From: a virus
Lineage: Duplodnaviria; Heunggongvirae; Uroviricota; Caudoviricetes
Reading direction: 5' to 3' (one strand)
Virus record (IMG/VR): IMGVR_UViG_3300032322_001781
DNA: 64,000 bases
In this document: positions 4,281 to 64,000 of the stretch, one piece after another
Layout: the number at the start of each line of letters is the position of its first letter
Numbering within the stretch: the stretch's first letter is position 1
Program-made: the position numbers and the translations under genes
The notes under the pieces: generated by a model
Told to the model about the DNA's origin: nothing
The model's database searches: none
The model's input: only the letters and a program-made list of their open reading frames with translations

Positions 4281-5483
4281 ATGGGATTTATATCAAGTGC
4301 AAATACGATTACATTAAACGCTAAGTTAACACCATTAGGTAGACAAAGAATGATTTCTACAAATAATGGACTTATCACCACATTTTCTTTGGGTGACTCT
4401 GACGCTAATTACTATGTTCCATTAACTTTGTCAACTGGACAAATTCCAGCTGAAGCTGGTGAAATTGGTGCAAACGCATCTTTTAGCAATAGTACTGCTC
4501 AAAACGTAAAATTAAAATCACCTATTATTGTTAATTCTAGTGGTTTACTAAGAAAACCAGTTGAATCTCAATCAATAACAATATCAACAGATTTATTATC
4601 AAATGGTTTTACAACAGTAAGTGGTAATAATTTAACACGAGTTATTATTGACAGAAATAATTACAATACGGATGCTTTGGTTAATTTATATTATTCATTT
4701 GGTTTACCTTTAAACACAAATAATGATAATACTTATACTGGTATAACATATGCAAATGGTGGATATTCAGATACAGCACTTAGTGCGATTTCTAAAACAA
4801 AAATATTAGTTATTGGCATAAACAATGCAAATTATGGTGAGTGTATTGATGGTAAAACTGTAAAAATACAATTACCTACATCAGCTGGCACCTATACAAT
4901 TTATAGCACTTTTCAAAATGATGGAACTTCTTTATCCATCCAAGATGCTAATATAAGAGACACATCAGTTGTAACAAGCTATTTAGATGATAATATTGCA
5001 ATGTTATTCTCAGATTCTATTGCTAGACCAAACGGTGGCTCTAGTTCATTAAGTTGGGCAACTGGATACGGGACAACAAAACCTTTTAGCGTTAATGGAA
5101 AACAACTTTACAATTTACAAACAAATAGCAATATTGGAACTACAGCTGATACTATTGTTGGTATTGCATACCTTGATAAGGGCTTTATGGTCATTACAAA
5201 CCAACAGATTATTTCAAATTATACTTCAACAGCAGCCACAGCTACTACAGTTAGTTTTAACAGTGTTTCAACTTCAGTTTACCAAAATATAACATGTGTT
5301 GCAGCTAGAGGCGAATTTGGCACTTCAACCAATTCAACTTTTACAGGTTCAGATGTTGTTAGGATTTCAGAAGTAGGTTTATACGACAATTTAAATAATT
5401 TGATAGCTATCGGTAAAACTGATAGACAAGTTACAAAAAATGTAAATGAATTTTTAGCTTTAAGTGTAAAAATAAATTTGTAA
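4281..5483 (+). CDS. Baseplate/tail structural protein (paralogous ends to 2144..4279)
   Basis: AKLTPLGR ... SEVGLYDNLNNLIAIGK motifs. Confidence 0.65.
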   Translation: MGFISSANTITLNAKLTPLGRQRMISTNNGLITTFSLGDSDANYYVPLTLSTGQIPAEAGEIGANASFSNSTAQNVKLKSPIIVNSSGLLRKPVESQSITISTDLLSNGFTTVSGNNLTRVIIDRNNYNTDALVNLYYSFGLPLNTNNDNTYTGITYANGGYSDTALSAISKTKILVIGINNANYGECIDGKTVKIQLPTSAGTYTIYSTFQNDGTSLSIQDANIRDTSVVTSYLDDNIAMLFSDSIARPNGGSSSLSWATGYGTTKPFSVNGKQLYNLQTNSNIGTTADTIVGIAYLDKGFMVITNQQIISNYTSTAATATTVSFNSVSTSVYQNITCVAARGEFGTSTNSTFTGSDVVRISEVGLYDNLNNLIAIGKTDRQVTKNVNEFLALSVKINL

Positions 5484-9971: not shown

Positions 9972-12322
9972 TGGAAGATAAATTAAGAATATCACCTTAT
10001 TCTAGAATAAAAGTAGAATGGACAGACCGACCAGAAAATTATTCTAAAGAAAATAAGAATAAAGTAAGAAACTATTTTGCTAACAAATATGGTGTGAATA
10101 AAAATAACATAAATGTTGTTTATAAACCTGTTAAATTTAATGAAAATGGTGACGCTATTGAAATAACTGGTGCTGGTATTGAAAACATTATGGATGTTAA
10201 TTATCAAAGAGCTCTTATGAAAGAGTTAATTGTTAGAGATAATAAAAATGTTGATTTTAACAGAATTATTGCGCTAGATGATAAAGTTAATGGTGAATTA
10301 AACATCGATTTAACTCAATCACAACACAAGTCGTGGTCTATAAAATGGATTATGATTGATAATTTTCTTTCTTTTGGTGAAAACAATTATATCCCTTTTA
10401 GTAAATTTAAAGGCTTAACAGTTGTGAATTCAATTCCTGGGAATCAAGGTGGTAAAACAACACTTACCATAGATGCTATAAAATTTTTATTACATGGTTC
10501 CACAACCAAAACCGATAAAAACGAAGAAGTATTTAACACTTATACTGGCAAAAATGAATTGGTTGTTCGAGGGATGATTGAAATTGAAGGTGAAGAAACC
10601 ATCATAGAGCGTAAAATGAAGCGAAGCTCCAAAAAAGGTGGTGGTTGGACTGTCATAAACAAGGTAAATTACTATAAAATTTTACCAGATGGGGAAGAAG
10701 AAGAATTAAATGAAGAAGATGCTAAAAAGACGACTTCAAAATTAAAAGAGACCATAGGTAGTGAAAAAGATTTTGAAATGTTGGTTTTGGCAACTGAAAA
10801 AAATCTAGATGACCTTATCGGTTTGACAACAACAGAATCTGGTAAAATATTAACTAGGCTTATTGGTTTGGAAATACTTGAGTTAAAAGAAGCTGCTGTT
10901 AGGGTGATGTATAATGATTTTACCAGAAAGAAAAAATCAAATGAATTCGATGTAATCACATTAACGAATGAAATCGAAGAACATAAAAACAAGATACTAG
11001 AATCTGAACAACTTGAAGAATTGTTTAGAAAAAGATTGTCAGATACTAAATCAGAGCTCCAAAAAAACAATGAGGAGAATGATAGGTTATTAAATAGCAA
11101 ACAAAAAATAGATGTTTCGATTTCTACATTAAACCCATCATCACTTCAAAATGAAGTAGATTTGTTAACAAAAAAAGGTGTAGAAACAAAGGCGAAGATA
11201 ACTGAAATGAATGATGTTATTTTTGCATATGGTAAAATTGAATTTGATGAAGACCTTCATTATATGTATACCAAAGAACTTAATGGTTTGACTTCTAAAA
11301 AAGCTGTTTTTGAAGCGGAAATAAAACGGTTAACTAAAGTTATTGCTGATTTGATAGCTGGGGGTATTTGTCAATCATGTCATCGTAAATTGGATGATGT
11401 AGACAATACTGAACATATTAATAAACACAATGAAGAGATAAATAAAATTAACAGTGACATATCTGATATATCAAAAAGACTAGAGGTGTTAGAGAGTTAT
11501 TTGTTGAACCTTAATGAGATTAAAGTAAAAGTAGATAAGAAAAATAGATTAGAGTTAGATAGAGATAGATTAGAGGTTGAAATTGGTTCATTAAGAAATA
11601 AGGTGGTTGAAAAAATGAATGATTTAAAAAAATACAACCTTAACTTAGAAGCTATTGAACATAATAAAAGAATTGATATTGAGGTTAGTAAAGTAAAAAC
11701 AAATATTTCAGTACTTAATCATACTAAAGATGAAACAATAACTAGGATAGAAAGAGTTACAAACGAAATACAAAATCATAATACCAACATTTCGACCAAA
11801 ACAAAATTAATAGAAACTATTAAAAAAGAAGAAGAGATTGATAAAATTTTTAAGATTTATATTGACTTGGTTGGTAAAAAAGGTATAAGCAAGTTGGTAT
11901 TAAGGTCAGTGTTACCTATAATAAATTCAGAAGTTCAAAGATTATTAGAAGATGTTTGTGATTTTGAAGTGGAGATATTTATAGATGATAAAAACGATGT
12001 TCAATTTTTGATAAATAAGGATGATGTTTCAAAACAACTTAAATCAGCTAGTGGTTTTGAAAAAACTGCGTCTAGTCTTGCGTTAAGAGGTGTTCTGGGT
12101 AAAATGTCTACGTTACCTATGCCTAATTTCATAACTTTTGATGAAGTTTTAGGTAAAGTAGCTCCAGAAAATATTGAAAAACTGAAAGGGTTGTTTGATA
12201 AGATTAAAAACATGTATGAAATTGTTTTTTTAATAACACATAATGATTTGGTAAAAGATTGGGCTGTTTCTTTGGTTACCGTTATAAAAGAAAATAATGT
12301 TTCGAAAATTAAAATTACATAA
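9971..12322 (+). CDS. sbcC: SMC-like recombination ATPase (SbcC/gp46/Rad50-like)
   Basis: Walker A NQGGKTT, CQSC zinc hook, SASGFEK signature, Walker B FITFDEV. Confidence 0.9.
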   Translation: MEDKLRISPYSRIKVEWTDRPENYSKENKNKVRNYFANKYGVNKNNINVVYKPVKFNENGDAIEITGAGIENIMDVNYQRALMKELIVRDNKNVDFNRIIALDDKVNGELNIDLTQSQHKSWSIKWIMIDNFLSFGENNYIPFSKFKGLTVVNSIPGNQGGKTTLTIDAIKFLLHGSTTKTDKNEEVFNTYTGKNELVVRGMIEIEGEETIIERKMKRSSKKGGGWTVINKVNYYKILPDGEEEELNEEDAKKTTSKLKETIGSEKDFEMLVLATEKNLDDLIGLTTTESGKILTRLIGLEILELKEAAVRVMYNDFTRKKKSNEFDVITLTNEIEEHKNKILESEQLEELFRKRLSDTKSELQKNNEENDRLLNSKQKIDVSISTLNPSSLQNEVDLLTKKGVETKAKITEMNDVIFAYGKIEFDEDLHYMYTKELNGLTSKKAVFEAEIKRLTKVIADLIAGGICQSCHRKLDDVDNTEHINKHNEEINKINSDISDISKRLEVLESYLLNLNEIKVKVDKKNRLELDRDRLEVEIGSLRNKVVEKMNDLKKYNLNLEAIEHNKRIDIEVSKVKTNISVLNHTKDETITRIERVTNEIQNHNTNISTKTKLIETIKKEEEIDKIFKIYIDLVGKKGISKLVLRSVLPIINSEVQRLLEDVCDFEVEIFIDDKNDVQFLINKDDVSKQLKSASGFEKTASSLALRGVLGKMSTLPMPNFITFDEVLGKVAPENIEKLKGLFDKIKNMYEIVFLITHNDLVKDWAVSLVTVIKENNVSKIKIT

Positions 12323-32868: not shown

Positions 32869-33223
32869 GGGGATATAAAGGTATTGACTGAGTATAGTCG
32901 TAATTGGTAAGCATGTAGTGCTAAATGGAAGCACTTTAAACTAGCTATTAAACTTTTTAAACGGCAACGATTTTGTTGTATCCGAAAATTTCCTTAACGA
33001 AGCTGCATGCAGTTTCGCTGGAGAGCTTGCTGTAGCCTAATATAGCTGATAGTGATAATTCACTTCATCGTGGTATGTTCCACGACATGATGGTAGTCCA
33101 TTAGGGTATCATGATTTCCTTCACGAATAATCATGATATTTGGCTTCATTAGAAAAAGAAGATAAACATGTAGAAAGTCTTTGAAGAATATTCAACACAT
33201 GGGTTCGATTCCCATTATCTCCA
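32869..33223 (+). ncRNA. ssrA: tmRNA
   Basis: GGGGATA/TATCTCC acceptor, GGTTCGATTCCC T-arm, and tag ORF 32963-33040 (GNDFVVSENFLNEAACSFAGELAVA*). Confidence 0.92.
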
Positions 33224-33323
33224 CTCATACCAGATTTATGTCCAATAAATACGCCACGGGATATAAAATAAAAACCCCCAGTAAATCGCTTTATTGGGGG
33301 TAATTTTTTGGTAGCCTCAACAT

Positions 33324-35801: not shown

Positions 35802-36980
35802 ATGAAACGTGAAATTGTAAAAATACTTAGAGAAGGACTTGTGCGTGAAGAACGTATAAAGTTTGATTTTACTATACCACAAGATATTCAACAAATAAAA
35901 GACGTGTTCAAAAAGAACGGTTTTAAACTATATGTTGTTGGTGGAGCTGTTCGTGATGCACTTTTGGGGAAAAAACCCAAAGATTTTGATTTGGTTACCG
36001 ATGCTCATCCAGACAAAGTAGAAGAAATTATGGCCAAATCTGGTCTTAGAACGCTCCCAACAGGCAAGGCGTTTGGTGTTATAAATGTGTTTACTGACCA
36101 AGGTGAATATGAAATAGCAACTATGCGTAAGGACATAGGTTCTGGCAGAAGACCAGATTCTGTTGAATATACAGATATTAATCACGATGTTTTAAGAAGA
36201 GACCTTACCATCAATGCATTGTTTTACGATATTGATACACATGAAATTGTTGATTTAGTTGGTGGTGTGCAAGACCTTAAAAATGGTGTTATAAGAACCG
36301 TTGGTGCACCAGAAGATAGATTTGGTGAAGACCGTTTGCGTATCATGAGAGCAATACGTTTTTCTGGCAGATTTGGAAATGAATTGGACCCAGCTACTGA
36401 TGCTGCGTTGCAAAAAGATGCGAGTCTTGAGGGAATTTCTGGTGAACGTATTCGTGATGAATTCATCAAAGGGATTAATTCTGCCAAGTCACAAAAACAC
36501 TTCTTGGAGATGTTAAACAGATACAATTTGTTTGATTGGATATTCAAAGGTTTGAATGTTGACTTGGATTTTATTTCTAGTATGAATAAGAATCATGATG
36601 ATTACATTGTGTTATTAGCAAGACTCCTAAAGAAAAACAACCTAGACGTATTAAAGAAAAAATTAAATGAATTAAAATACTCTGTTGAAGAAGTTAAAGC
36701 CATAACATTCCTTATAGCTATGTTGAAATTGGATGTTGACACAGCGGTTACCTTAAAAAAAGCTGAACAAAATTCTGGTGTATCTCCAGACCAAATCAGA
36801 GAGTTCTGTGGAAAGGAAAATGTGCCATCACAACTTTTGAACGCATTTGAAGAATTCAGACTTTCTGTAAGTGGCCAAGAAGTTATGGATAAAATGGGTT
36901 TGAAACAAGGTCCAGAGCTTGGTAAAGCAATTCAAAAGATTGAGACTGATAACTTCAAAAAAATACTGGGTTCTATCTAA
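35802..36980 (+). CDS. cca: CCA-adding tRNA nucleotidyltransferase
   Basis: VGGAVRD, DFDLVT, RRDLTINA and EDRLRIMRAIRF motifs. Confidence 0.93.
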   Translation: MKREIVKILREGLVREERIKFDFTIPQDIQQIKDVFKKNGFKLYVVGGAVRDALLGKKPKDFDLVTDAHPDKVEEIMAKSGLRTLPTGKAFGVINVFTDQGEYEIATMRKDIGSGRRPDSVEYTDINHDVLRRDLTINALFYDIDTHEIVDLVGGVQDLKNGVIRTVGAPEDRFGEDRLRIMRAIRFSGRFGNELDPATDAALQKDASLEGISGERIRDEFIKGINSAKSQKHFLEMLNRYNLFDWIFKGLNVDLDFISSMNKNHDDYIVLLARLLKKNNLDVLKKKLNELKYSVEEVKAITFLIAMLKLDVDTAVTLKKAEQNSGVSPDQIREFCGKENVPSQLLNAFEEFRLSVSGQEVMDKMGLKQGPELGKAIQKIETDNFKKILGSI

Positions 36981-38161: not shown

Positions 38162-38226
38162 TACTTGACAAATTAAAAAATAATTAGTACCTTTGCATAA
38201 CTTTTAGAAAAAACAACATATTTATT
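38162..38226 (+). promoter_or_regulatory. tRNA-operon promoter, copy 1
   Basis: TTGACA (38165) ... TACCTTTG (38188) followed by TATTTAT; near-identical copies at about 56451, 59517 and 63425. Confidence 0.8.
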
Positions 38227-39333: not shown

Positions 39334-39418
39334 CGTGAGGTGGTCTAGCGGTTTGGGGCACCAGTCTGATACACTGGAGAGGAAACTCTATAGGTGGGTT
39401 CGACTCCCACCCTCACGA
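39334..39418 (+). tRNA. tRNA-Ile(GAT), long variable arm
   Basis: ctGATac loop, CCAGT/ACTGG stem. Confidence 0.85.
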
Positions 39419-39427
39419 CTTTAAATT

Positions 39428-56432: not shown

Positions 56433-56450
56433 TTGTTTTTTTTATATAAA

Positions 56451-56512
56451 TACTTGACAAATTGAAAAATAATTACTACCTTTGCATAACTTTTAAAAAT
56501 AACTATATATTT
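56451..56512 (+). promoter_or_regulatory. tRNA-operon promoter, copy 2
   Basis: TTGACA at 56454, TACCTTTG at 56477. Confidence 0.8.
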
Positions 56513-56521
56513 AATAGTAAT

Positions 56522-56596
56522 ATGAAAAACTTAAATTTAAACTTAGTCCTTGTGTTATGTTTGCTAGTGGCAGACTGGATGGGCTATGTTTGTTAA
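56522..56596 (+). CDS. Attenuator leader peptide L2, MKNLNLNLVLVLCLLVADWMGYVC
   Basis: 11 of codons 2-16 are L, V or C; antiterminator segment GGATGGGCT at 56577-56585. Confidence 0.85.
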   Translation: MKNLNLNLVLVLCLLVADWMGYVC

Positions 56597-56620
56597 GTAA
56601 GTAATAAACTGAAATAACCG

Positions 56621-56650
56621 AAGCCCATCCGTAAAAAGATGGGCTTTTTG
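56621..56650 (+). terminator. Attenuator terminator T2
   Basis: AAGCCCATC/GATGGGCTT stem plus T-run. Confidence 0.88.
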
Positions 56651-56659
56651 CTTTTATAT

Positions 56660-56746
56660 GCTCATATACCAAAGTGGTTGAATGGGGCGGTCTGCAAAAC
56701 CGCTGGATTGAAAAATCCCACGTAGGTTCGAATCCTACTATGAGCT
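56660..56746 (+). tRNA. tRNA-Cys(GCA), long variable arm
   Basis: ctGCAaa loop, U73. Confidence 0.88.
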
Positions 56747-56764
56747 CACAAACAAATAATAAAA

Positions 56765-57088
56765 ATGAATAAAAACGAAGTAACAAAAGAATTGTATAAA
56801 TCAAAAGCAATGGCTAAGTTTAGTCATTATATTGGTGGTAATTTATATTACATGGTTGAAGTTTTTGGTGAATTGTATCAGTTCCCAATCTCAACAATTG
56901 AGCCCAGACAAATTATGATAGGTGGTATGGATGAAATGGATGGTCCAGCAGATGCTGAATATATTGAAACTATAAAGCTTTCTGAAGATTTAGGTACAAC
57001 TAGGTTTGAAGGTGAAGTTAGAGGTTCAGAATTGAATAGATGGATTGGTAAAGCGATAGATACTAATAATTTTATAAAAATAAATTGA
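56765..57088 (+). CDS. Hypothetical protein
   Basis: 107 aa ORF in the tRNA cluster. Confidence 0.6.
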   Translation: MNKNEVTKELYKSKAMAKFSHYIGGNLYYMVEVFGELYQFPISTIEPRQIMIGGMDEMDGPADAEYIETIKLSEDLGTTRFEGEVRGSELNRWIGKAIDTNNFIKIN

Positions 57089-57089
57089 A

Positions 57090-57311
57090 ATGAAGGAAAT
57101 TAGAAAAGTTGGTATTGAAATAGAGATTGAGGTTCAACCAATAGAAGAATATTTTAAAGAAAATGGGATTGAATCTAATGGTGAGCCATCTAGTAAATTG
57201 GCTTGTTATATTCCATGTATAAATACATCGTTTTCAACAAAACCAGAAAATTTTGAATCTATGGTAAAATCAATATTTTATAGTTTTTTTCAAGAAAAAC
57301 TTAAAAAATGA
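57090..57311 (+). CDS. Hypothetical protein
   Basis: 73 aa ORF. Confidence 0.5.
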   Translation: MKEIRKVGIEIEIEVQPIEEYFKENGIESNGEPSSKLACYIPCINTSFSTKPENFESMVKSIFYSFFQEKLKK

Positions 57312-57316
57312 AATAT

Positions 57317-57388
57317 GGGGGTTGCGTATAATGGTAGTATGCATGGTTTACATCCATGAAGGAAACGGTTCGATTCCGTTAGCCCCTA
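57317..57388 (+). tRNA. tRNA-Val(TAC)
   Basis: CATGG-ttTACat-CCATG arm. Confidence 0.9.
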
Positions 57389-57394
57389 CAACAG

Positions 57395-57465
57395 TGTTCT
57401 AGCATATGATGGTAGTATACTTCTTTGACATGGAAGGTGAAGCAGTTCGATTCTGCTTAGAACAA
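57395..57465 (+). tRNA. tRNA-Val(GAC)
   Basis: CTTCT-ttGACat-GGAAG arm. Confidence 0.85.
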
Positions 57466-57525
57466 CAAAAATAAATTTGGTAATATTAAAAATATATATT
57501 ACCTTTGTTTCGTTCTTTAATATAT

Positions 57526-57611
57526 GGGTGGGTGGCGTAACTGGTAGCCGCACTAGACTTAAAATCTAGGGTCCCGAAAGGGGCGTATGGGTTCGAATCC
57601 CATCCCGCCTA
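57526..57611 (+). tRNA. tRNA-Leu(TAA)
   Basis: Canonical class II tRNA, ctTAAaa loop. Confidence 0.92.
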
Positions 57612-57688
57612 CGCTAATTAAGCTAGTTTATGAACAGCCTATGAGGTGAGATGCTCTCATTATAAGACAGCTCGGAAAGACGAGCAAT

Positions 57689-57794
57689 GGTGAGGTGGTG
57701 AAATTGGTAGACGCAACCTATTAAGGGGTCGGAGGTAATAGCAAAACGTAAGATACGGAATAACTCCATGCAAGTTCAAATCTTGTCCTCACCA
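57689..57794 (+). tRNA. tRNA-Leu-like gene, irregular anticodon loop (TAA or AAG), variable arm of about 40 nt
   Basis: Leu-type D-arm GGTGAAATTGGTAGACGC, intact acceptor and T-arm. Confidence 0.6.
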
Positions 57795-57870
57795 CCTTGT
57801 GCTCAGTAAAGCCTCTTGCGAAAGCAACGTAACTGATGGAAGTATCTCTAATGAGTACGCCTTCCAAAAT

Positions 57871-57968
57871 GGCCAGATGGTGGAATTGGTAGACACAGCG
57901 TAAGTAGGTATTACAGTAAACCGAACTCGCTTCTGTATTTATGTAGGTTCGAGTCCTACTCTGGGCCA
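57871..57968 (+). tRNA. tRNA-Leu-like gene with elongated anticodon arm (CAG at tip?)
   Basis: Leu-type D-arm; AGCG/CGCT stem encloses 27 nt. Confidence 0.55.
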
Positions 57969-58051
57969 CAAAATCTTGCTTTGCAACTGATGAGTGAAAG
58001 ACCTCAAAATTATGCAATGGTAGTTGACTGCTTGGAATAGACAAGCACCAT

Positions 58052-58135
58052 GGGGAAATGATGGAATTGGCAGACATAATCGCCTTAGAAGCGATGGCTG
58101 AAATATGCGTAAGAGTTCGAGTCTCTTTTTCCCTA
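58052..58135 (+). tRNA. tRNA-Leu(TAG)
   Basis: ATCGC-ctTAGaa-GCGAT arm. Confidence 0.9.
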
Positions 58136-58184
58136 CAAATCTTGAGAGTAATTAACTCAAGACTGAACGATTCGAAGCGTTCGA

Positions 58185-58274
58185 TTGGTCATAGTGTAGT
58201 GGGCACACTGGCCCTAGACTCCATATAGAGGGTCGGGGCTGGAGGTTGGTGGTTCGAATCCTACCTTGACTAAC
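58185..58274 (+). tRNA. tRNA-like gene with extended anticodon arm, identity unclear
   Basis: TTGGTCA/TGACTAA acceptor, GCCCT/GGGGC stem enclosing an extra GAC/GTC hairpin, T-loop TTCGAAT. Confidence 0.5.
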
Positions 58275-58278
58275 TAAA

Positions 58279-58363
58279 AAGATGGTTACAGCAAATAACT
58301 TAGGATAAAAATTTGTCTCGAAAACGAATCTAGTGGTTCAAATCCACAAATATACCATCTTGA
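58279..58363 (+). ncRNA. tRNA-mimic RNA of the helix + CAGCAA family
   Basis: AAGATGGT/ACCATCTT helix, TACAGCAA, an anticodon-like arm (ctCGAaa) and T-arm GTGG-TTCAAAT-CCAC. Confidence 0.6.
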
Positions 58364-58367
58364 TTTT

Positions 58368-58449
58368 GGCCCTATGGTGGAACTGGTAGACACGCTTGAC
58401 TCAAAATCAAGTGCCGCAAGGCGTAACGGTTCGAGTCCGTTTATCCCTA
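58368..58449 (+). tRNA. tRNA-Leu(CAA) with mismatched acceptor stem
   Basis: ctCAAaa loop; GGCCCTA vs TATCCCT gives three mismatches. Confidence 0.65.
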
Positions 58450-58454
58450 CAAAT

Positions 58455-58544
58455 GGTTCAGTGGTGCAACTGGTTGAGACACAGCAGATTTAAAATCTGC
58501 TACCCAAGAGGTAAACGTTGTGGGTTCGAATCCCACTTGGACTA
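58455..58544 (+). tRNA. tRNA-Leu(TAA)
   Basis: GCAGA-ttTAAaa-TCTGC arm. Confidence 0.88.
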
Positions 58545-58612
58545 CTTAAGTTCTTTGAAATATTTTTACATGTAGTGTGTACTTTTCACGCGTCTACCTT
58601 ATATTTATAAGT

Positions 58613-59047
58613 ATGAGAACAGATATAATTGAAAGAAAAACAGAAATACTTAATTGGATAAGTGAAAATAAATCTAAAGCTTATATGATTAAAGAATTAG
58701 GTTGTAAACAAGATACACTAAATCAATATTTAAAATTAATGAATATTGATTATAACGGTAATCAAGCTGGTGTTGGTTTACTAAAAAGTAAAGTAGAATT
58801 AGAAGATATAATAACTAACAAAGTTAAGTTCAGTCGTCATCAATTAAAGAAAAGACTATTACATTTAGGTATACTTGAATATAAATGTTGTTGGTGTGAT
58901 AATATTGGTGAATGGAATGGTAAACCGATGTCGTTAGAGTTAGACCACATTAATGGTATCAATGATGATAATCGATTAGAGAATCTTAGAATCCTTTGCC
59001 CAAATTGTCATAGTCAAACACCTACATATAAAAATAAAAATAGATAA
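58613..59047 (+). mobile_element. HNH homing endonuclease
   Basis: CCWC...LELDHING...N...NLRILCPNCH motif; TATTTAT promoter at about 58601. Confidence 0.85.
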
Positions 59048-59048
59048 T

Positions 59049-59135
59049 ACCCTTATAAGCAAACTGGTAAAGCTGGTGGTCTTAGAAGCCATGGCAAACA
59101 TTGATACGTTCTCGGTTCGAGTCCCACTATCCTCA
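59049..59135 (+). pseudogene. Degenerate tRNA-Leu(TAG)
   Basis: GTGGT-ctTAGaa-GCCAT arm, with unpaired acceptor and weak T-stem. Confidence 0.6.
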
Positions 59136-59248
59136 CAAGAAATATTTAAAGCTGATATTGCAATATCATCTTTTTTTATGTATATTTGTGTTATGATAAA
59201 ATTGAAAATTTTATCCATTTTTTATGTATATTTATATGTATATGTGAA

Positions 59249-60001: not shown

Positions 60002-60087
60002 GTCGCATTAGCCTAACAGGTTAGGGCACCAGCCTTTCAAGCTGGAAGTCGAAAGACTGTGAGAGGGTTCGAGTCCCTCATGCGATA
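60002..60087 (+). tRNA. tRNA-Glu(TTC), long variable arm
   Basis: CCAGC-ctTTCaa-GCTGG arm; AGTC-GAAA-GACT variable arm. Confidence 0.88.
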
Positions 60088-60150
60088 CCTTGACTTTTTT
60101 TGTACTTTTTCTATAAAGAAAGAAGAACAATTTGGAAAGACGGATAATAT

Positions 60151-63795: not shown

Positions 63796-63889
63796 CGGGA
63801 TTTGTGCGAGAGGTTTAAGCATCCAGTCTTGGAAACTGGAAACCGTACAAGGTTAGTGCGGTTCGAGGGTTCGACTCCCTCAATCCCGA
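63796..63889 (+). tRNA. tRNA-Ser(GGA)
   Basis: CCAGT-ctTGGAa region read as ttGGAaa; long variable arm. Confidence 0.75.
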
Positions 63890-63902
63890 CAAATTTTATC
63901 AT

Positions 63903-63989
63903 TCTGCTTTCGCCTAATTGGTAGGGCACGGGGCTTTGAACTCCGCAATCGTAAGATTCTAGGTCTAGGTTCGAATCCTAGAGGCAGAA
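63903..63989 (+). tRNA. tRNA-Gln(TTG), long variable arm
   Basis: U1:A72, ctTTGaa loop. Confidence 0.75.
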
Positions 63990-64000
63990 CATTTAAGAGT

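Follow-up and report, generated by a model that had tools for sequence, protein, structure and literature searches.

Attenuator 2 (att2) is the name used here for a putative leader-peptide attenuator in a 64,000-nucleotide stretch of viral DNA, IMG/VR record IMGVR_UViG_3300032322_001781; this whole stretch is referred to below as the window. The locus consists of a promoter of the Bacteroidota type (TTG...TAnnTTTG), like the other promoters of the window, followed by an A/U-rich 5′ untranslated region (UTR), a leader open reading frame (ORF) of 24 codons and a stop codon, an intrinsic terminator, and a cluster of Cys, Val and Leu tRNA genes interspersed with two small ORFs (Table 1). Transcription probably starts at about 56490, judging from the position of the −7 box, which lies 38 nt from the leader ORF. 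The promoter block is nearly identical in four cassettes of the window, and the 19-mer starting with TACCTTTG was found in exactly four copies, as against 0.1 expected.

The leader codes for the peptide MKNLNLNLVLVLCLLVADWMGYVC, in which codons 4-16 form a run dominated by the amino acids of the tRNAs encoded downstream. Leu is specified by TTA (four times), TTG, CTT and CTA, Val by GTC and GTG (twice), and Cys by TGT. Thus, 11 of the 15 residues in codons 2-16 are Leu, Val or Cys, compared with a share of 15.3% in the long ORFs of the window (probability of at least 11 of 15, 8e-7), and 10 of the 11 sensor codons can be decoded by a canonical anticodon encoded downstream. An earlier note on this DNA, which described an attenuator here, had counted 7 Leu, 3 Val and 1 Cys in these codons and had pointed to a perfect complementarity between 56577-56585 and 56622-56630; translation of ORF 56522-56596 confirms the former, and the latter is exact in the sequence.

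The terminator (56620-56649) contains a hairpin at 56620-56647 with 10 bp, an 8-nt loop and a folding energy of about −15 kcal/mol. Its T-run (56645-56649) is followed by G, C and a second T-run (56652-55). Only 10 nt separate the end of the terminator from the start of the tRNA-Cys gene, which leaves no room for a promoter, and tRNA-Cys must therefore come from readthrough.

Table 1. Features of the attenuator 2 locus, in window coordinates
Feature	Position	Strand	Remarks
Promoter P-att2	56454-56484	+	Bacteroidota type; TTGACA 56454-56459, TACCTTTG 56477-56484
5′ UTR	56490-56521	+	A/U-rich, no Shine-Dalgarno sequence
Leader ORF	56522-56596	+	24 codons and TAA; MKNLNLNLVLVLCLLVADWMGYVC
Sensor run	56531-56569	+	Codons 4-16; 7 Leu, 3 Val, 1 Cys
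Segment 1	56544-56556	+	Anti-antiterminator strand, inside sensor codons 8-12; pairs with segment 2 if the leader is untranslated
Segment 2	56577-56585	+	GGATGGGCT, codons 19-22; 5′ strand of antiterminator
Segment 3	56622-56630	+	AGCCCATCC, terminator 5′ arm; common to antiterminator and terminator
Segment 4	56638-56655	+	Terminator 3′ arm (56638-56647) and T-runs
tRNA-Cys(GCA)	56660-56747	+	88 nt, long extra arm; 59.8 bits
Small ORF	56765-57088	+	107 aa
Small ORF	57090-57311	+	73 aa
tRNA-Val(TAC)	57316-57389	+	
tRNA-Val(GAC)	57395-57466	+	
Second-class promoter-like motif	57473-57507	+	Leaderless; TTTGG box 57476-57480, TACCTTTG 57500-57507; directly before Leu genes
Leu cluster	57526-58545	+	4 canonical tRNAs and 3 tRNA-like genes
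tRNA-Leu(TAA)	57526-57612	+	
Atypical tRNA-like gene	57689-57796	+	Enlarged anticodon arm
Atypical tRNA-like gene	57871-57967	+	Enlarged anticodon arm
tRNA-Leu(TAG)	58052-58136	+	
Atypical tRNA-like gene	58186-58274	+	Enlarged anticodon arm
tRNA-Leu(CAA)	58368-58449	+	
tRNA-Leu(TAA), second	58455-58545	+	

Alternative pairings and ribosome position

Segment 2 of the leader is the perfect 9-nt complement of segment 3, so named in Table 1, and the duplex between leader and terminator arm has an energy of −18.9 kcal/mol, which was matched by 2 of 2000 shuffled leaders. The competing 1:2 pairing joins 56544-56556 to 56578-56586 and overlaps the sensor codons. In ribosome-free RNA, the combination of the 1:2 hairpin and the terminator (−38.7 kcal/mol) was calculated to be more stable than the antiterminator (−34.2 kcal/mol).

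The dependence on ribosome position was examined by folding the transcript from about 56490 with the ribosome footprint kept single-stranded, for every position of the A site. Of the 10 bases in the terminator 5′ arm, 8-9 were found to pair with 56578-56587, ahead of synthesis of the 3′ arm, when the A site was at codons 1-15 (a shorter footprint extends this to codon 16); for A-site positions from codon 16/17 through the stop codon, none of the 10 was paired with the segment 2 region. The complete RNA behaves in the same sense: with the ribosome on codons 4-14, the antiterminator conformer either has the lowest energy of all structures or falls short of the minimum by no more than 1-3 kcal/mol, and it loses by about 15 kcal/mol when the ribosome is on codons 16-25. 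The masking boundary coincides exactly with the end of the Leu/Val/Cys run. This geometry of a free or masked segment 2 was the same in all nine cassettes tested by footprint-masked folding.

Overall, att2 combines the features of a classic attenuator: 1) an ORF after the promoter, 2) clustered regulatory codons, 3) a terminator, 4) a 2:3 antiterminator that excludes the terminator, with a 1:2 pairing that overlaps the regulatory codons, and 5) the stall geometry.

Sister cassettes and orthologues

The block of promoter and 5′ UTR occurs four times in the window, at 38188, 56477, 59542 and 63450 (0.1 expected), and behind each copy an ORF of 24-33 codons is separated by an A-rich spacer from a terminator, after which a tRNA cluster follows. 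The att1 leader, beginning MRNINIHINSISMWRRNSN, precedes genes for Trp, Ser, His, Ile, Asn, Met and Arg tRNAs; att2 precedes those for Cys, Val and Leu; att3, with a leader beginning MRTFNNIFDFAAFAAEED, those for Phe, Glu, Asp and Ala; and att4, with a leader beginning MKTTTTYTGKQYPQGKQ, those for Pro and Gln, then Tyr, Thr, Lys and Gly. The last four genes lie beyond the end of the window and were seen in the near-identical contig L070 and in contig L134. Together, the sets {W,S,H,I,N,M,R}, {C,V,L}, {F,E,D,A} and {P,Q,Y,T,K,G} comprise all 20 amino acids. Over the four cassettes, 54 of the 64 residues in leader codons 2-17 belong to the leader's own cluster, a value that 200,000 random divisions of the amino acids into groups of 7, 3, 4 and 6 never reached, the highest being 46.

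In every cassette, the antiterminator strand begins around codon 19-23, in most of them at 19-20, and matches the cassette's own, distinct terminator stem, the stem pairs being GAGUCGG/CCGAUUC, GGAUGGGCU/AGCCCAUCC, GGUCAG/CUGACC and GGACUAG/CUAGUCC. Across 13 cassettes, the mean duplex energy was −13.1 kcal/mol with the cassette's own terminator arm versus −8.5 kcal/mol with arms of the other types; the antiterminator pairing is specific to each cassette. The motif GGCTATGTYTGT, which follows segment 2, is common to att1 and att2. It is read there in different frames (...SAMSV... in att1, ...GYVC and stop in att2), indicative of conservation as RNA and not as peptide.

These comparisons bear on the idea that the small ORF encodes a functional hydrophobic micro-protein and that the terminator is simply leaky, in which case tRNA synthesis would be constitutive, through passive readthrough or other promoters, and the match between codons and tRNAs would have no regulatory role. 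The att2 peptide is indeed hydrophobic and resembles a signal or membrane peptide, and a second promoter-like motif lies ahead of the Leu genes. However, hydrophobicity is not shared by the three sister leaders, each of which nevertheless matches the tRNA set behind it, and the frame of the conserved 3′ motif differs between att1 and att2. The rarity among shuffled leaders of the perfect 9-nt antiterminator, its cassette specificity and the lack of promoter space before tRNA-Cys also argue against a micro-protein, and we consider this explanation highly improbable.

Several further observations were made on the cassettes of relatives. In L134 (minus strand), about 2.1 kb downstream of the att4 leader, a 13-codon Lys-rich mini-ORF, MKNLNNKLKKKKR, and then a hairpin directly precede two Lys(TTT) tRNA genes; this mini-ORF may be a fifth, nested sensor. 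The relatives G002-G006, L166 and L203 carry a small hairpin of the GGGG-AAA-CCC type in the cassette 5′ UTR, which the window cassettes lack. L203 has in addition a very basic 36-codon ORF between the promoter and the att1 leader.

The relatives of the window come from IMG/VR and from lake metagenomes, as contigs of 22-73 kb. Searches of a phage collection for cultured relatives by megablast, blastn and tblastn returned nothing relevant. A scan of viral contigs for the terminator pattern matched G006 only. A metagenome scan with the 3′ end of the att2 leader returned 66 stretches, three of which are true att2 loci and the rest chance matches; the three are L038 (the G006 contig) and L041 and L070, both near-identical to the window. 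A looser scan for the promoter/UTR pattern returned 114 stretches and yielded three new cassettes (L134, L166 and L203), the other stretches being unrelated Bacteroidota-phage promoters.

The att2 leader is unchanged in L041 and L070 (the L070 leader is given at 97% identity) and has diverged in G006 (MRTTSLQTLLLSCLLLVVDKMGNVC) and L166 (MKNLSLQIVLVLCLLVADWVGYAC). L070, L166 and G006 all retain the ATG, the frame and the stop codon; the sole indel in the coding part is 3 nt long and in frame, whereas indels in the spacer are not multiples of 3. Both G006 and L166 keep 6-7 Leu, the Cys at codon 13, 2-3 Val, the terminator and both helices, and the spacer codons differ among the att2 leaders (N/K versus T/S/Q/R). 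In L166, the 2:3 pairing is retained via G-U pairs after changes in both strands. Cys, ORFs, three Val and five Leu genes follow the G006 leader, and two Cys, three Val and four Leu genes follow that of L166. G006 has two CTT codons in its leader and also a Leu(AAG) gene.

A different possibility is that the ORF is incidental and that the leader RNA is a riboswitch of the T-box or TRAP type, bound by a tRNA or a protein, or a Rho- or processing-dependent element. T-box leaders do sense tRNAs directly and use terminator/antiterminator pairs. No Rfam family, the T-box included, was matched at E <= 1 (for the T-box, on 56440-58600), and one leader would need to sense three to seven amino-acid specificities. 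The retention of ATG, frame and stop, with a single in-frame coding indel, and the exact coincidence of the end of the sensor run with the onset of footprint masking of segment 2 likewise argue against this possibility. We therefore regard a riboswitch or similar element as very improbable.

Downstream genes and the internal promoter-like motif

The earlier note listed behind att2 a Cys gene, Val(TAC), Val(GAC) and Leu genes with anticodons TAA (two), TAG and CAA, all of which were recovered; its count of two atypical genes was too low, at least three having been found. It also placed an internal TAnnTTTG promoter near 57500, which is supported as a motif. This second-class motif, consisting of AAATTTGGTAAT, 15-16 nt and TACCTTTG, occurs five times in the window (38090, 45791, 53334, 57473 and 59460). 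Of these, two are followed by protein genes and one by the Leu tRNAs; the remaining two are placed in tandem with the promoters of att1 and att3, about 50 nt upstream of them. The copy at 57473-57507 is present in the near-identical L070 and absent from the Val-Leu spacer of the more distant G006. Transcription of the Leu genes in the window phage thus probably has two sources, readthrough and this leaderless promoter, and the attenuator probably controls these genes only in part. As G006 has no internal motif, this partial independence may be specific to the window lineage.

No function was found in Pfam, PHROGs or the ESM Atlas for the two small ORFs of the operon. Both are missing from L070, and the region of the first has a weak 90-nt match of 70% identity in G006. 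The tRNA region is mosaic between near-identical phages, as seen on comparing window positions 56658-57312 and 58394-59195 with L070. At the att2 cluster, the Cys tRNA of L070 is another one, of 72 nt, its Leu(TAA) gene also differs, and Leu(AAG) takes the place of Leu(CAA) plus Leu(TAA). L070 is without the HNH endonuclease gene found at 58577-59047 and has another HNH gene between its Gln and Tyr tRNA genes.

The three tRNA-like genes have normal acceptor, D and T arms, but in place of the anticodon arm they have a stem whose loop measures 12-27 nt. L070 has one of them (57871-57967) at 100% identity, amid neighbours that have been swapped. These genes could contain short introns, or be decoys or something else. 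A long extra (variable) arm, which in bacteria is normally confined to Leu, Ser and Tyr tRNAs, was found in Cys, Glu, Pro, Gln and Ile tRNAs of 86-95 nt (56660-56747, 60002-60089, 63796-63890, 63903-63990 and 39334-39419, respectively). Using ARAGORN with a relaxed threshold, tRNAs with CTA and TTA anticodons were called in relatives (G005 5408-5481 and 10006-10096; G006 5295-5370); these would be of the amber and ochre suppressor types, and no equivalent was called in the window.

The window has a GC content of 31% and is thus AT-rich. It carries about 30 tRNA genes and one tmRNA gene, as well as genes for an SbcC-like nuclease, a DNA ligase, pieces of a DNA polymerase, a clamp loader and a CCA-adding enzyme. 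The tmRNA (32869-33226, with a tag ending in AGELAVA) and the CCA-adding enzyme (35802-36980) are phage-borne and lie near tRNA clusters; CCA is not encoded in several of the tRNA genes. The sequencing runs containing the region are solely DNA runs of lake-water metagenomes. The source appears to be a very large uncultured freshwater phage, because CheckV rates the contigs of relatives, long as they are, as only 6-21% complete.

Proposed regulation and comparison with known systems

We regard it as highly probable that att2 is a ribosome-mediated transcription attenuator of the trp/ilv type, with a leader peptide, that controls a phage tRNA operon. All sequence-level hallmarks of the attenuator that the earlier note proposed are present, and the three sister cassettes and the diverged orthologues keep the match between leader and tRNA genes, in support of that interpretation. 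We infer that the leader is translated, that its translation is coupled to transcription and that it responds to tRNA supply. After initiation at about 56490, a ribosome would translate the 24-codon leader. Given an ample supply of charged Leu, Val and Cys tRNAs, it would move past codon 16 and cover segment 2, so that segments 3 and 4 form the terminator and the polymerase stops at about 56647-56655. If a tRNA for TTA, TTG, CTT, CTA, GTC, GTG or TGT is scarce, uncharged or damaged, the ribosome would stall within codons 4-16 and cover segment 1, and the free segment 2 would pair with segment 3, blocking the terminator. Readthrough would then yield tRNA-Cys, the two small ORFs, the two Val tRNAs and the Leu tRNA genes, and the newly made tRNAs would relieve the stall, giving negative feedback. 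Untranslated RNA would adopt the 1:2 and 3:4 pairings and terminate. The phage thus probably makes its Leu, Val and Cys tRNAs only when ribosomes decode the corresponding codons slowly.

Some observations weigh against this attenuation model or limit its reach. The regulation, namely readthrough on stalling, is predicted from sequence and folding, and the host is uncultured. Wherever the ribosome is placed, folding energy favours the terminator in three of the four cassettes of the window, and antitermination in those three would therefore depend on kinetics. The CTT sensor codon has no canonical cognate anticodon in the window; its decoding requires wobble by Leu(UAG), an AAG anticodon or the atypical gene at 57689. 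Four codons of the att2 sensor region (Lys and three Asn), not conserved in G006, belong to other clusters and are probably spacers. In G002, the att3 cluster includes a Pro tRNA that its leader does not sample, which makes the match imperfect in places. The att2 orthologues are few (three distinct sequences), and their changes preserve wobble pairing and are not fully compensatory. Finally, the internal promoter could free expression of the Leu tRNAs largely from the attenuator, despite the Leu-dominated sensor.

What would the four attenuators serve? With clearly less confidence than in the attenuator itself, we tentatively suggest a codon-resolved homeostat of tRNA supply, in which four leaders divide the 20 amino acids and each switches on the operon whose products are short, the trigger perhaps being loss of host tRNA during infection. 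Such loss may result from host shut-off, from a mismatch of codon usage with the 31% GC genome or from cleavage by a host anticodon nuclease, and if it is the trigger, the attenuators would be the sensor arm of a counter-defence. The same RNA switch might instead sense amino-acid starvation through the charging of host tRNAs, and so couple phage tRNA output to host nutrition. Classical leaders do respond to charged tRNA, and the switch geometry would be the same; tRNA abundance, charging and damage are indistinguishable as triggers on the basis of sequence. However, extra tRNA would not relieve amino-acid starvation, and several isoacceptor codons are sampled per amino acid, each with a downstream anticodon, which fits the sensing of individual tRNA species. 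Starvation sensing is accordingly judged improbable.

If the tRNA-supply homeostat is true, the phage, which appears to gauge decoding speed codon by codon and to replenish the limiting tRNAs alone, would provide a direct and testable answer to the question of why and when large phages express tRNA arrays. It would also connect phage tRNAs with the depletion of host tRNAs and with defence by anticodon nucleases, imply that Bacteroidota-infecting phages exploit transcription-translation coupling, and offer compact natural sensors of tRNA availability for synthetic biology.

How does att2 compare with known systems? Leader-peptide attenuation is a textbook mechanism; to our knowledge, its targets so far comprise amino-acid biosynthesis and a small number of synthetase genes. 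Like the ilvGMEDA, ilvBN, leu and trp attenuators, att2 has a short promoter-proximal ORF in which regulatory codons (Leu and Val included) are clustered, four segments with 1:2, 2:3 and 3:4 pairings, and a terminator before the first structural gene; in these attenuators too, a stall frees segment 2 and untranslated RNA terminates. Unlike them, att2 precedes tRNA genes and not genes for biosynthetic enzymes, lies in a phage behind a Bacteroidota-type promoter, lacks a Shine-Dalgarno sequence as well as sequence or Rfam similarity to them, and is one of four paralogous sensors covering all 20 amino acids. The Rfam leader families (Leu, Trp, His and Thr) gave no match at the gathering score or at E <= 1. 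Attenuator 2 would thus work like the classical amino-acid leaders, but outside those families.

The pheM leader attenuator of Escherichia coli controls pheST, encoding phenylalanyl-tRNA synthetase, and senses a single amino acid. It resembles att2 in that leader-peptide attenuation acts on a component of translation, with feedback on the decoding capacity for the sensed codon, and differs in that its target is a synthetase, whereas that of att2 is the tRNA itself. An attenuator-like leader of E. coli pheV (tRNA-Phe) was considered and discarded, since the K-12 sequence has neither leader nor terminator upstream of this gene. T-box riboswitches share with att2 a terminator/antiterminator decision made by the state of a specific tRNA, and act on translation-related genes. 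Unlike att2, they bind the uncharged tRNA directly, without ribosome or ORF, through one specifier codon; att2 samples 11 codons of three amino acids.

The tRNA region of T4 and the tRNA arrays of huge phages are similar to the present system in combining a phage tRNA array with a CCA-adding enzyme and tmRNA. In the literature as searched, these arrays are described as simple promoter-driven units, with no reported decoding-dependent attenuator. Full-text searches, which also covered leader-peptide attenuation in Bacteroidetes, returned no case, phage or cellular, of tRNA genes under leader-peptide attenuation. The mechanism itself is known; the tRNA-gene target, the phage setting and the fourfold division of the genetic code are new.

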